Positions 40,237 to 61,548 of a stretch of 64,000 bases of DNA are shown here, one piece after another. The stretch covers positions 19,838 through 83,837 of the IMG/VR virus record IMGVR_UViG_3300012940_000024; one strand, written 5' to 3'. The translations under genes and the position numbers were made by a program. Source of the stretch: a virus (lineage: Duplodnaviria > Caudoviricetes). The notes under the pieces are model-generated. The model did no database searches and was not told the DNA's origin. It worked only from the letters and a program-made list of their open reading frames with translations. The stretch's first letter is position 1. The number at the start of each line of letters is the position of its first letter.

Positions 40237-41265
40237 ATGAATAATACTGTGACAAAACAACCATATAATAAAAAGAAAGTGTATGAATTAAAATTTATTA
40301 AAGAAAAGGTAATTAATTTTTTAAATGATAAAAGTGAAAATACCGCACTGAATTATAAAGTAGATATTAATCAATTTACACAATACTTTTTTAAAAAGGA
40401 TTGGGAATGTGTATTAGAAGAAGAATTAGAAAAAATTGAAGCAAACGATATTGTTACATATAAAAACTGGTTAAGGGAGCAATATTCTAACTCAACCGTT
40501 AATAGAAGAATCAATTCAATGAAAAGCATTTTCGGTTATTTAGAAGCAGACAATCCAAAAATAAGAAAAGCTATATTTAAGGTAACAAAAAGCTTAATGG
40601 AGAATCCCGACAGCTACGGTTCTCTTACATGGGAAGAAGTTTGTGAAATGATTGAAAGGGCAAAAAAATATCCTGATGGTGAAGAGTTTAGCATTTTAAT
40701 TGAAGTAGCTGTAAAAACATGTATCCGGCTAAGTGCATTATTAAGCCTTACATGGGAACAAATATATGATAAAAATCAAAAAGGGGAAAACATTAAGGTT
40801 ATAGAAGTAATAGATAAAGGGCAACCGCACATTAAACCCATTTCAGAAAAGCTATACCAACGGATTGAGACATTAAAAGGAAATGAAGTTGTTTTCCGGC
40901 ACTTCCATCCACATAAAGTAGGGAAGTATATTGAAAAGCTTTGCAAAGAAATGAATATCAGTGAAAAAAGAAATATCAAATTCCACTCATTTAAAAAAGC
41001 TGGTATCAACTATGTATTTGATACTACTGGTGACATTATGCTTGCACAACAACAAGGAAATCATAAATCCAGTACCACAACAATGAAATCTTATCTCCAA
41101 AACAAAGAAGATTTAAGAGATATTCCTTCATATACAATGGGGGAAGATATTAATCTTGACGATTTAAACAATTTAAGCAAGGAACAATTATTAGAAGCAA
41201 TCAATAAATTAAGATCAAGTAGTAAATTAGAATTATTAAGAATTACAAAAGAAATTTTTCGATAA
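40237..41265 (+). CDS. Tyrosine recombinase-family protein, SPbeta YopP-like
   Basis: NSTVNRRINSMKS, CIRLSALLSL, FHSFKK, GNHKSSTTTMKSY. Divergent from the XRE gene. Confidence 0.8.
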   Translation: MNNTVTKQPYNKKKVYELKFIKEKVINFLNDKSENTALNYKVDINQFTQYFFKKDWECVLEEELEKIEANDIVTYKNWLREQYSNSTVNRRINSMKSIFGYLEADNPKIRKAIFKVTKSLMENPDSYGSLTWEEVCEMIERAKKYPDGEEFSILIEVAVKTCIRLSALLSLTWEQIYDKNQKGENIKVIEVIDKGQPHIKPISEKLYQRIETLKGNEVVFRHFHPHKVGKYIEKLCKEMNISEKRNIKFHSFKKAGINYVFDTTGDIMLAQQQGNHKSSTTTMKSYLQNKEDLRDIPSYTMGEDINLDDLNNLSKEQLLEAINKLRSSSKLELLRITKEIFR

Positions 41266-41316: not shown

Positions 41317-41628
41317 TCATCTTAATTGAAGGAAGGTAATAACATCTTGAATTTTTAAATCATCAACAAACATTTTTGCATTAACCAAATAAATCCATTT
41401 TAATTTCTTAATATGAGTAATATTAAATTCATAACAGATTTTCGTTTCAATAGCCTTTCTTATTTTAAGATTCATTCTTTTTTTAACTTTAGATGGAGTT
41501 TTCTCTAAATTTTCTCCATAAAAATCTTTTGTTAATCTAAATGCATTAATTTCAATAATTTTTAATAATTCATTTATATCTTTTTGTGACAATCTATTTT
41601 CTCTAGAATTTTCTAATAAATGAGTCAT
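41317..41628 (-). CDS. Hypothetical protein, weak ORF6C-like C-terminus
   Basis: RBS present. The domain call is a weak recollection only. Confidence 0.5.
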   Translation of the reverse strand: MTHLLENSRENRLSQKDINELLKIIEINAFRLTKDFYGENLEKTPSKVKKRMNLKIRKAIETKICYEFNITHIKKLKWIYLVNAKMFVDDLKIQDVITFLQLR

Positions 41629-41762
41629 TTCATAACCCCCATTAATTTAATTTGATGAAAGAATATTTTGAGAATTTAATCTCTTTCTTTTTTTATCTTA
41701 ATCCATACATTAGAATATAATGTGATTTTTAAGAAAATATAATTTTCCTGCTTATGTTGACG

Positions 41763-42062
41763 ATTTCAATCCACACATCTATGTATGATGTGACATATGC
41801 ATATACAGACATTGTAATGCAATTCACTAACTTCAATCCACACATCTATGTATGATGTGACCTGTTTTGACTTGTATTTGTTCAGAAGGGATTCAACTTC
41901 AATCCACACATCTATGTATGATGTGACACGAGCGATAGCAAGCGATCTTATTCTTTTGAAATTAACTTCAATCCACACATCTATGTATGATGTGACAACA
42001 AACAGGACACACAAGGCGTTATGGAAGCCGACTTCAATCCACACATCTATGTATGATGTGAC
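41763..42062 (-). CRISPR. CRISPR mini-array: 5 x 32-bp type I-C-like repeats and 4 spacers (35, 34, 37, 34 nt)
   Basis: Repeat GTCACATCATACATAGATGTGTGGATTGAAGT (minus) at 41830, 41896, 41965 and 42031. The leader-distal copy at 41763 ends GAAAT. Internal stem CACATC/GATGTG. Confidence 0.97.
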
Positions 42063-42225
42063 AGCGAATTAAATATTATTAGTAATTTTTTTACCCATTT
42101 TTGAATTAACATTGAGAAATATTACTTATAAATATTCAAATCAATGTTTAAAACAACTTATTTTTAATAAAATTTAGTGCGAATCATCTTGTAAATTTAT
42201 GTTTGCTTTATATTCGCACTAAAAT
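42063..42225 (-). promoter_or_regulatory. CRISPR leader, type I-C-like
   Basis: AT-rich, with TCGCT immediately before the first repeat and a perfect 12-bp inverted repeat TTTAGTGCGAAT (42173-42184)/ATTCGCACTAAA (42212-42223). Confidence 0.7.
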
Positions 42226-42350
42226 AACAAGATGTGTGAACTGCCTATACGGTAACACAATGTATAGGATTAACCCTTAGGTGAGAGTTTAAAATCAAAT
42301 TTAACCTCACCAGTCGGACATAGTAAGCTTGCCCGCCTATCATTAAAAAT
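42226..42350 (-). ncRNA. Candidate tracrRNA
   Basis: Between effector stop and leader. Stems GGTGAG/CTCACC and CCTATAC/GTATAGG, then anti-repeat TTCACACATCT (42230-42240) complementary to repeat AGATGTGTGGA with one G:U. Confidence 0.65.
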
Positions 42351-42355
42351 ATAGT

Positions 42356-43850
42356 TTATTTTGATGTTATGGTATCATCCGTTTCTTTTATAAATTTTTC
42401 ATTTAGATCAGATTCTTCAATTGGTTTAGCGTTTGCAATATTTTGACTGGCATTATAATCTGCGTTTGCTTCAAAACCACATTTTTTACATTTAAATAAT
42501 TCCTGTCTTACACGTTGACCTTCTTCTAAATTTCCGCATTGGCTACAGGTTTGAGAAGTGTAGCTAGGATCAACAAAATAAACTTTAATTCCTTTTTTAT
42601 GTGCTTTATAAACAATCATAATTTGAATTTGATAATATGACCATAAATCATTAAAGTTTTTTCTTTTCTTTTTTTTGTGATTAAATGATAATTTTTCTAA
42701 ATGTATACTTTCAGCATTATGTTTTACTGCAAAATCAACTATTTTTTTACTTATAATATGACTATGATTTTTGCGAAAGTTTTTTTCTTTTTTTTTCAAT
42801 TTTTCTAATGATTTCATTTTTCGTTGGTATCCTTTTCCAGATCTATTACTATCAGAATCAATTTGAAGTCTCCTTCGCTGTGTTTGAATGGCAGTCCAAA
42901 CTTTTAAACCCTTCTCTTTATAACTTATTTTTTCTTTTATATTTGGTTTATCATTTAATGATACATAAGCAGAAATTTCTATTCCTAGATCTACACCAAC
43001 AATTCTATTTGGAATTGATTTTTTTTCTTTTACGGGAATGTCTAAAGCCAAATTTAAAATTAATTTTTTACCAACACTAATACTACTATCACATAATTTA
43101 TATTCTTTATTGATAACTTTATCTAATAATGATATTAATTCATTTTTTTTTTGCTTTTTGTTTACTTCCTTTTTTTAAAATAATTTTAAATAATACCCCT
43201 TTGCCCCATTCGCTATTTGCCCATTTATTTCTAATATTAAGAAAATAATCATCTCCTTCCTTATAAATAACCATTGAACGATTTCTAATCATTAAATTAT
43301 CAGTTTTTTTATATATTTGTATGGTTCGTTCTCCTTTTAATATCTCATCAATGTTATTTTCAAAATCTGCTTTTACTTTACTTATAATACGATTTACAGT
43401 ATCATAATGCAGTTTAAATTTTTTATGTATTAGATTATCTATTAATGTATCTTCATTTAAAATGATAGCTTTTTGATAAATTTTTTCAGCCTGATTATTA
43501 AATTGTTTTTCTAATTCAGTAAGTTTATCTTTAGCATTATTTAGTTCAATTTGTGCTTTTTGAACTCTTTTAAGTGCTTTTTCTTTATCCTTTGCTTTAT
43601 TAGCTTTTTCTTTTACATTAATTAAATTATTTAATTTTTTTTCAATTTTTTCATTTTGTTCTTCAATTTTTTCATTATATATTTCATTAATTTGTTTAAA
43701 TTCTTGTGTGGCAACATGTTTGAAATAATAATGATTAAGTGTAAAATTCAATGCTAGAAATTGCTTATGTAATTCCTCACGCATAAAAATATTAATTTCA
43801 TCTTTGTTTTCAGAAACAATTTTAATTTCAAACTTTCTTGTTAGTTTCAT
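42356..43850 (-). CDS. cas12f: Cas12f-like (type V-F/V-U3, TnpB-derived) RuvC effector, 497 aa if one A is removed from the A10 run at 43143-43152
   Basis: Track ORFs 43140-43850 and 42356-43051 join as AKKNELISLLDKVINKEYKLCDSSISVGKKLILNLALDIP. RuvC I VGVDLG, RuvC II IHLEKLS, Zn finger CSQC/CKKC, RuvC III NADYNASQNI. Adjacent to the CRISPR array. Resembles CnCas12f1 as recalled. Confidence 0.8.
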
Positions 43851-43989: not shown

Positions 43990-44598
43990 ATGAAAAAGAT
44001 TTCCTCCATTTTTCTAGGAATTTTCATGATGTTATTCTTTGCTGGACAAACACATGCACAAGGCATGGACACTTACATTGTTCAGCGTGGAGATAGCATG
44101 TGGAAGATTGCGGTGAAATATCAAATTGGAGTAAGCGAAATTATTAACGCTAACAAACAAGTTCAAAATCCGAACTTGATTTATCCAATGCAAAAATTAA
44201 ATATCCCGAATATCGATCAAACAAAGGGTGTAGAACAGCAAATATTGACTTTGGTGAACCAAGAAAGAGCCAAAGCCGGATTACAACCTTTGCAAATGGA
44301 TTGGGAACTTCAACGTGTTGCAAGGATTAAATCACAGGATATGCAAAGCAAAAGATATTTTAGTCACCAATCCCCAACATACGGAAGTCCATTTGACATG
44401 ATGCGTAAGTTCGGTATTTCATTCCGTACTGCCGGAGAAAACATTGCACAAGGACACCGTACCCCACAACAAGTAATGAATAGTTGGATGAACTCTAGTG
44501 GTCATAGGGCGAATATATTAAATGCAAACTTTACTCATATTGGAGTAGGGTATGAACCAACAAATAATTATTGGACACAAATGTTCATTGGAAAGTAG
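43990..44598 (+). CDS. Secreted LysM + CAP/SCP domain protein (SafA/ExsA-type LysM fused to a YkwD-like domain)
   Basis: Signal peptide, YIVQRGDSMWKIA LysM, VNQERAKAGL...YFSHQSPTYGSPFDMM...GENIAQG...WMNSSGHRANIL CAP motifs. Confidence 0.9.
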   Translation: MKKISSIFLGIFMMLFFAGQTHAQGMDTYIVQRGDSMWKIAVKYQIGVSEIINANKQVQNPNLIYPMQKLNIPNIDQTKGVEQQILTLVNQERAKAGLQPLQMDWELQRVARIKSQDMQSKRYFSHQSPTYGSPFDMMRKFGISFRTAGENIAQGHRTPQQVMNSWMNSSGHRANILNANFTHIGVGYEPTNNYWTQMFIGK

Positions 44599-44607
44599 GA
44601 AGATAAG

Positions 44608-44967
44608 ATGAAAAGGATATTTTCTTTTTTAATTGTTGTTATGGGATCTATCTTTGGTGCAACAACAATTAGTGCTAATCAAATAGGGGAGGGTATGATG
44701 CAGGAAATTTTACTACAAGAAGCTGGTACTAACCCCCCACCACATCATGAAGGACAAGAAGAATTTGGTGAAGAATATAATGAAATTTTAAAGAAGGGGA
44801 TTCTTGAACATAGGGTAGCAGACGGAGATACCCTTTGGAAAATTTCAAATTATTACGGTGCTAATTTTGATGAAGTAGTTGAAATCAATAACCAATTTGA
44901 AGATCCAAATATGATTTATCCTGATGATGTTGTATATGTTCCTGTTCATAAAAGATATGTGGAATAA
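44608..44967 (+). CDS. Secreted LysM-domain protein
   Basis: Signal peptide, HRVADGDTLWKIS...DPNMIYPDDVVYVP. Confidence 0.85.
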   Translation: MKRIFSFLIVVMGSIFGATTISANQIGEGMMQEILLQEAGTNPPPHHEGQEEFGEEYNEILKKGILEHRVADGDTLWKISNYYGANFDEVVEINNQFEDPNMIYPDDVVYVPVHKRYVE

Positions 44968-61333: not shown

Positions 61334-61548
61334 ATGAGTATTTCAAATTCTAAAAAAAAAAAGAACTGATAAATAGATTTTTTATACTCAATAATGAACT
61401 TTTTGAAATTTGGCATGAAATAAGTCAGTTAAATAGTGGAGAAAGTCAATTTGATTATGTAACAGATCCTCAATTATCAGATGAAGTAGATCGATTACTC
61501 ATTAGAGCGAAAAAAATAAAGAAAATCGTTTATCAGGAAACTAAATAA
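61334..61548 (+). pseudogene. Small gene out of frame at an A11 run (61352-61362)
   Basis: GGAGG RBS, MSISNSKKK, then continues KELINRFFILNNELFEIWHE...YQETK* only if the run is 9 or 12 A. Confidence 0.6.

Follow-up and report, generated by a model that had tools for sequence, protein, structure and literature searches.

Where miniature type V CRISPR systems without adaptation genes obtain their spacers is an open question, and a phage with such a module could renew its spacers only through the Cas1-Cas2 of its host. A locus on the minus strand of a virus contig, at which a gene for a Cas12f nuclease is followed by a structured RNA, a leader and a short CRISPR array, raises this question in concrete form. 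The window that we analysed is a 64,000-nt stretch, the last 64 kb of the 83,837-bp IMG/VR record IMGVR_UViG_3300012940_000024, which is rated approximately 52% complete; coordinates refer to the window, in which the locus spans 41763-43850. The original prediction had read the locus as a phage-borne minimal CRISPR system, and all of the elements that it had placed on the minus strand were found where it had put them. Our analysis indicates that the nuclease and the tracrRNA (trans-activating CRISPR RNA) are of type V-F, that leader and repeats alike belong to type I-C where those of clostridial kin are I-B-like, and that the tracrRNA has co-evolved with the repeat that is present. The value of the locus is as clean evidence that a V-F module has adopted an I-C leader and array and is carried by a phage without adaptation genes; together with its clade, the locus offers a concrete, testable answer to the question of spacer origin.

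The nuclease and its guide RNA

The cas12f gene lies in two reading frames on the minus strand: an N-terminal frame of 236 aa (43140-43850) that encodes the WED/REC part and ends at a TGA directly after a run of ten A residues, and a C-terminal frame of 261 aa, counted from the junction (42356-43141), that encodes WED, RuvC I-III and the zinc-ribbon TNB domain. Read through, the two frames give a product of 497 aa. The two halves were analysed separately, with an X placed at the break for the tree only. The C-terminal half matches the Pfam model Cas12f1-like_TNB (E = 4e-24) and the PADLOC profiles Cas12u3 (E = 3.3e-90, 301 bits) and Cas12f (E = 1.3e-88, 296 bits), and both profiles also match the N-terminal half through their own N-terminal parts (Cas12f, 2.7e-21; Cas12u3, 3e-15). 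The motifs VGVDLG, HLEKLS, NADYNA and CxxC..CxxC, from which a RuvC protein with all three acidic positions had been predicted, are present, and the catalytic residues D51, E149 and D228 and the zinc ligands C199, C202, C218 and C221 (numbering of the C-terminal half) are invariant in 24 homologues. A 498-aa metagenomic homologue (P0005) is colinear with both halves from end to end and without an indel at the junction, its residues 248 and 253 facing, respectively, residue 232 of the first half and residue 1 of the second; the N-terminal half is 37% identical to it over residues 4-232. Approximately 120 matching proteins of 458-650 aa were found in Bacillus, Priestia, Clostridium and metagenomes, the best at 60% identity (C-terminal half).

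The best solved relatives of the C-terminal half are PDB 8HR5 (E = 1.7e-68), the complex of CnCas12f1 with guide RNA and DNA, and then 9NZP (E = 3e-57), which is RhCas12f (PMC13186708); the likeness to CnCas12f1 that had been noted from motifs is thereby matched by the top-ranking structure. The CnCas12f1 of Clostridium novyi is of the same length as the phage protein (497 aa), with domains in the same order and with the catalytic D/E/D and the zinc ribbon; its kin include near-identical clostridial proteins to which the C-terminal half is approximately 51% identical, and its locus likewise has a tracrRNA between gene and array, no adaptation genes and, beside clostridial relatives, a scaffold of the same family. 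In contrast, the N-terminal halves are weakly similar (33% over 80 aa), and the phage locus is virus-borne with a frameshifted gene. Two details of the original prediction did not survive the comparison. The K/E-rich coiled-coil insert that it described is not peculiar to this protein but a feature of the clade, present in close homologues of 460-516 aa; only beside shorter orthologues, RhCas12f with its 415 aa being one, does it count as additional. Likewise, what it suggested to be an undescribed miniature nuclease is a new orthologue (at most 60% identity in the databases searched) and not a new kind.

The generic guided_TnpB model also matches the protein (E = 3e-52), the NCBIfam models IS200_TnpB and IS607_TnpB match the C-terminal half at 67 and 65 bits (E approximately 1e-18), and databases name the homologues 'transposase'. 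On these grounds the protein might be the TnpB of an IS200/IS605 or IS607 element, working with an omega RNA of its own and lying by chance beside an unrelated orphan array. However, the Cas12u3 and Cas12f profiles score far above the IS200 and IS607 TnpB models, in agreement with the membership in Cas12f/V-U3 that had been proposed; neither a Y1 TnpA (PF01797) nor a serine-recombinase TnpA (PF00239) was found in the whole record; the locus is present there in one copy only; arrays occupy the same position in homologous loci; and the scaffold described below has no fused guide but ends in an anti-repeat that pairs and co-varies with a separate repeat-spacer array. We conclude that the locus is not an insertion sequence element, and consider a TnpB with its own omega RNA extremely improbable.

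From the stop codon of cas12f to the first repeat are 293 nt, which can be aligned with the same regions of the closest homologous loci. They contain a 110-nt tracrRNA scaffold of five helices (42230-42339, minus strand), matched at 84.9 bits (E = 3e-18) by a covariance model, R1, that was built from a 119-position core alignment. The consensus fold of five sequences shows compensatory changes in 13 of 35 pairs. R1 matches 26 further places that were not used in building it, most of them just 3' of a Cas12f homologue and among them a Clostridium botulinum plasmid and several Clostridium genomes. Across 29 distinct scaffold sequences, 95.6% of cells are paired, vs. 71% in shuffles and 35-44% with slid partners, values read from an alignment that was fitted to R1 and therefore has inflated pairing, a bias that the slid controls share; double-sided changes occur in 23 of the 28 scaffold pairs. 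The scaffold lies on the same strand as the gene, as fixed by G-U pairs. A scan for promoters and terminators gave counts at the level of shuffles. At some loci (among L103, L104, L105 and L093) two scaffold copies are present, once with a copy on the opposite strand, upstream of the gene.

The scaffold closes, at its 3' end, with 14 nt (42230-42243, minus strand) that form an anti-repeat to positions 15-28 of the repeat. The duplex comprises 12 Watson-Crick and two G-U pairs and has an energy of -23.4 kcal/mol; 1% of shuffles and 3 of 218 window tiles pair as strongly. At eight loci the tail after the last helix complements the repeat of the same locus, so that a different anti-repeat goes with I-C-type, I-B-type and other repeats; cognate tail:repeat pairs average -15.9 kcal/mol vs. 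-9.7 kcal/mol for non-cognate pairs (permutation p = 1.5e-4, 8 loci). In addition, four loop bases of helix 1 (42325-42328, minus strand) are complementary to the final four bases of the repeat, with which they would form a putative pseudoknot, and pseudoknots of the repeat 3' end with the tracrRNA have been described for Cas12 tracrRNAs (bioRxiv 10.1101/2025.01.20.633832). The loop tetramer tracks the repeat tail: at most loci it complements the common tail, and the two loci with an odd tail have a matching loop. The tail of the phage repeat is unusual in having G at position -2, and the matching position of the helix-1 loop is C. This covariation suggests that the helix-1 loop pairs with the repeat 3' end.

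The results indicate that the structured gap with an anti-repeat, which had been singled out as a tracrRNA candidate, holds a conserved, covarying RNA that also stands beside homologous genes and whose anti-repeat tracks the repeat. Because the anti-repeat and the pseudoknot loop both vary in step with the repeat beside them, the nuclease has in this array a guide source of its own. The locus is very likely of subtype V-F1 (formerly V-U3, C2c10), with a cognate tracrRNA and array; it is another member of an already-known family, with a hybrid architecture.

A leader and array of type I-C design

The array (41763-42062, minus strand) has the five repeats and four spacers that had been predicted behind a leader. 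The 32-nt repeats lie at 42031-42062, 41965-41996, 41896-41927, 41830-41861 and 41763-41794, and are separated by spacers of 34, 37, 34 and 35 nt; the first four repeats share one sequence, from which the last departs at one base. Beyond the last repeat, at 41695-41762 on the same strand, are a fifth spacer of 36 nt and a decayed sixth repeat (41695-41726; 21 of 32 matches). On both strands of the window only three other 32-mers reach at least 20 matches to the repeat, and in IMG/VR the repeat core has three single matches, which is chance level and none of which is an array.

When the array was compared with plasmids, the matches were type I-C arrays on plasmids of the Bacillus cereus group. 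The 32-nt I-C repeat of that group is identical to the phage repeat at 24 of 32 positions, has a hairpin in the same register (with two pairs changed on both sides) and has nearly the same 11-nt tail. A search of 401 Bacillales genomes with the array gave matches in 50, and the ten strongest loci all have repeats that are identical to the phage repeat at 24-27 of 32 positions; in the four genomes that were tested, long I-C arrays lie a few kb from Cas8c. The likeness extends to the leader (42063-42229, minus strand), in which an inverted repeat (42177-42219) and the leader-repeat junction are conserved. Leaders of genuine I-C arrays, which in Bacillales genomes and plasmids are neighbours of I-C cas genes (Cas8c, Cas1 and Cas2), were taken from cas2 to the first repeat; they share with it both the inverted repeat, approximately 115-155 nt upstream of the first repeat, and the junction, and at locus L097 the pairing of the inverted repeat is kept by a compensatory change. 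The same inverted repeat, which follows the anti-repeat, was considered as a terminator of the tracrRNA; its presence in genuine I-C leaders led us to reject this as its main meaning. Judged from these sequence comparisons, the leader and repeats are homologous to the type I-C arrays of Bacillales, with which they share repeat length, hairpin register, 3' tail, spacer length, leader inverted repeat and junction; the original prediction makes no mention of such an origin. Unlike those arrays, the phage array has a weaker hairpin, is coupled to a tracrRNA and Cas12f, and stands in a record without Cas8c, Cas7c, Cas4, Cas1 or Cas2.

The I-C-type design is shared by the nearest relatives of the nuclease. 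In a maximum-likelihood tree, some rows of which were cut at the first methionine, the phage protein falls in a 100/100 clade with four loci that have I-C-type arrays, nested among clostridial loci that are I-B-like. These four closest loci, three metagenomic contigs and Priestia endophytica, are 54-60% identical and have I-C-type leaders and repeats, with up to 21 repeats. The clostridial relatives, including those nearest to CnCas12f1, have repeats of 29-30 nt, which we take, on general knowledge of I-B repeats, to be of the I-B kind. The profile searches place the protein within Cas12f/V-U3, the tree places it beside Cas12f loci with I-C-type arrays, and homologous loci have arrays in the same place. 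Loci L097-L102 and L013 share with the phage locus the clade, an identity of 54-60% (C-terminal half), the scaffold, the I-C-type leader and the 32-nt repeat; unlike it, they have intact genes and arrays of up to 21 repeats, and are flanked not by phage genes but by genes of cellular or plasmid-like character (polysaccharide synthesis genes, Mrr, Toprim). The family is rare, occurring in 2 of the 401 Bacillales species sampled: a family-level genome search found only Priestia endophytica, and an order-level search found one more distant relative, at 37% identity.

An array of this design could work mainly, or also, with the type I-C system of the host, in which case Cas5c would process its transcript and Cascade-Cas3 would be aimed at rivals of the phage, with or without production of Cas12f. 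The I-C design extends to repeat length, hairpin register, 11-nt tail and leader, an array used in this way would stay useful with the nuclease gene broken, and no I-C genes were found in the record (Cas8c, the model for which finds the gene in four Bacillales genomes, and Cas7c were searched; Cas3 and Cas5c were not). However, the covariation of anti-repeat and pseudoknot loop with the repeat ties the array to Cas12f, and the same I-C-type leader and array stand beside Cas12f in Priestia endophytica, in the genome of which Cas8c was not found. Moreover, four of the five repeats have a tail whose position -2 departs from the I-C consensus, and the hairpin needed for Cas5c processing is weakened both in the closest relatives and in the phage, in which the I-C-register hairpin has -6.4 kcal/mol, no better than shuffles, vs. 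approximately -11.5 kcal/mol for genuine I-C repeats. The weak hairpin argues against cleavage by I-C Cas5c as the chief constraint, although use by host Cascade is still compatible with it. We think it unlikely that the array works chiefly, or also, through the host system.

V-F/C2c10 systems are reported to co-occur with type I-B systems and to share their PAM (protospacer-adjacent motif), and shared adaptation has been proposed for them (bioRxiv 10.1101/2024.04.09.587696). The I-C-type clade and the leader homology extend this idea, and a limited literature search found no paper describing them. Neither Cas1, Cas2 nor Cas4 was found in the whole 83.8-kb record, so that what had been claimed for the window, absence of these genes and of TnpA, extends to the record. 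The absence of adaptation genes, taken with the I-C leader and repeat, makes a host I-C Cas1-Cas2-Cas4 the most likely source of spacers; and if I-C adaptation acts in trans, the nuclease should accept the I-C PAM, 5'-TTC. There is a parallel in the clostridial relatives, in which I-B-like repeats go with CC-type PAMs: the two differ as a 29-30-nt I-B-like repeat with a C-rich PAM and, at the phage locus, a 32-nt I-C repeat and leader with a predicted TTC-like PAM. In practical terms, the locus adds to the known Cas12f proteins a new orthologue of 497 aa, for which the guide scaffold is defined and a T-rich PAM is predicted.

According to the mechanism that we propose, the array would be transcribed from the I-C-type leader, and the tracrRNA would pair with each repeat through the 14-bp duplex and the pseudoknot. 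A Cas12f dimer would assemble on the duplex of tracrRNA and CRISPR RNA (crRNA), as in the solved CnCas12f1 complex 8HR5, and this complex would cut PAM-flanked double-stranded DNA that matches a spacer. New spacers would be inserted in trans by a type I-C Cas1-Cas2-Cas4 of the host. Use against competing phages or plasmids, in line with the competing mobile elements that the original prediction named as probable targets, is a reasonable guess. We consider this mechanism as a whole, trans-adaptation included, to be probable.

The frameshift and the possibility of a decaying locus

The proposal that Cas12f is guided by this array has to be set against the state of the gene. The ~497-aa protein of the original prediction has the right length after read-through, but it is not an intact open reading frame: the frame is split by a +1 shift in an A10 homopolymer (43143-43152, minus strand), and one A fewer restores it; the original prediction touches on this break only implicitly, in speaking of a repaired ORF. 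With that A removed the frame runs on into a conserved N-E-L, with no indel relative to homologues. A conserved programmed frameshift was considered and ruled out, there being no A-run at the matching site in homologues.

Several observations weigh against the proposed mechanism. The single uninterrupted effector frame of approximately 400-550 aa, the one defining feature of V-F1 that the locus lacks, is replaced here by two frames with a +1 shift. Elsewhere in the record, 14 coding homopolymers of 8-9 nt lie within long intact frames, so the assembly is not generally error-prone. The phage protein is the longest tip in its clade (0.8 vs. 0.02-0.38), a branch that fits either fast phage evolution or relaxed constraint. 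The array is short, with decaying distal repeats, and the I-C-register hairpin is weak, as noted above. Approximately half of the phage genome is in the record, and missing cas genes could sit in the unseen half. Expression of the RNAs is predicted from sequence, and trans-adaptation and the TTC PAM are inferred. Finally, protospacers were sought with the whole array in phage and plasmid collections (in which only other arrays matched), with exact cores of four spacers in IMG/VR, with the five spacers in the phage's own record at up to 8 mismatches, and in the 401 Bacillales genomes, and none was found in any of these collections; hence no target and no PAM could be read. To derive a PAM for the clade, phages were also searched with the array of the closest relative, which has 21 repeats; there was no match.

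Some of these observations invite an account in which the locus is a decaying relic, captured from a Bacillales host and now dead, with a real frameshift, no full-length nuclease and an inert array and RNA. It would explain a frame that is broken in the record while other homopolymers are read cleanly, a last repeat with a substitution and a degenerate sixth, and the long tip branch; and 12 of 12 homologous genes checked are intact, so that the break is lineage-specific. However, the lesion stands alone among 497 codons, neither half containing a further stop, and all catalytic residues and zinc ligands are kept; four of the five repeats are identical; and the phage-specific repeat tail is compensated in the tracrRNA loop, arguing for selection on the RNA pair until recently. 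The site itself is also suspect. Runs of at least nine A are prone to transcriptional slippage and to slippage of tRNA-Lys, an A10 run is a typical site of assembly errors, and the run that breaks cas12f is the only coding run of ten in the record and the hardest single site. (The longest homopolymer in the record, an A11 at 61352-61362, is outside any long frame.) We give the relic account appreciable weight but think it probably wrong.

The choice for the gene is thus between one that is intact in nature (the shift being an assembly error) or partly rescued by slippage, and one that was inactivated very recently; it is conceivable that some full-length nuclease is made from the A10 allele through slippage, and we judge the prospects of a nuclease that is functional in nature to be about evenly balanced. 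A bolder reading would join both uses of the array. The host I-C system (Cas1-Cas2-Cas4) would load spacers into the phage genome in the course of infection or lysogeny, the resulting crRNAs would serve both the phage Cas12f, by way of the tracrRNA, and the host Cascade, and the A10 run would act as a slippage-based on/off switch. If this were true, the phage would turn the adaptive immunity of its host into a weapon against rival elements; we consider it improbable.

The carrier phage and other loci

That the locus is phage-borne, as had been predicted, is borne out by the portal, large terminase and other phage genes on the contig. Also encoded are a sigma factor, a helicase of exonuclease V/Dda-like type and, in the tail region, two giant proteins. 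The portal shares 55% identity with its counterpart in Brevibacillus phage Sundance and 38-40% with the portals of Bacillus siphoviruses of 160 kb, and its closeness to portals of Brevibacillus and Bacillus phages places the locus on a phage of a Bacillales-type host. On the evidence of these genes, the carrier is a large siphovirus-like phage.

Phage-borne compact type V systems are already known. Cas12j (CasPhi) belongs to another family, matching the phage protein only at E = 3e-4 and over the zinc ribbon, and is not known to need a tracrRNA. It and 'Cas12 hacker'/Cas12p (bioRxiv 10.1101/2025.01.20.633832) resemble the present system as small phage-borne RuvC effectors with a short array, no adaptation genes and a presumed role in mobile-element conflicts. 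For Cas12p the same source describes a repeat of 37 nt, GTN as the PAM and thioredoxin as a partner; identity of the present system with 'Cas12 hacker' was rejected, the effector family being different.

At least two other IMG/VR phage contigs carry more distant relatives of the gene. On contigs of 139.6 kb (L002:5001-6093) and 97.8 kb (L003:5001-6210), relatives at 37% and 32% identity, respectively, are followed by 3-4 repeats, and at the former a weak R1 match lies between gene and array. Bacillus phage Mgbh1 (NC_041879.1) encodes a 433-aa TnpB/Cas12f-like 'transposase' that is 40.6% identical to the C-terminal half. Just upstream of its gp53 (L190:1776-1878), approximately 90 nt before the start codon, are two 37-nt direct repeats with a spacing of 66 nt, which may be an unannotated mini-array; R1 has no match at the Mgbh1 locus.

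Two loci among the closer relatives have repeats in an unusual arrangement. In Priestia endophytica (L013:5278-5887), the array beside Cas12f consists of strongly diverged repeats, many copies of which differ from one another. On contig JGI24024J18818_10000730 (L100:5761-5903), a scaffold of 124.8 bits lies 3' of an intact 462-aa relative; only a few bases further on come the 3' half of an I-C-type repeat and one guide-like stretch, with neither a leader nor a second repeat. The layout resembles a natural single-guide or omega-RNA-like arrangement, or else an array that has collapsed.

The Cas12f locus itself lies in an accessory region, on the minus strand. On one flank is a tyrosine integrase (40237-41265), and an open reading frame of 103 aa (41317-41628, minus strand), with no match in Pfam, lies directly 3' of the array on the same strand. 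On the other flank, and divergent from cas12f, are genes for two signal-peptide-like LysM proteins (43990-44967, plus strand; Pfam), one with a CAP domain, an unusual cargo for the accessory region of a phage.

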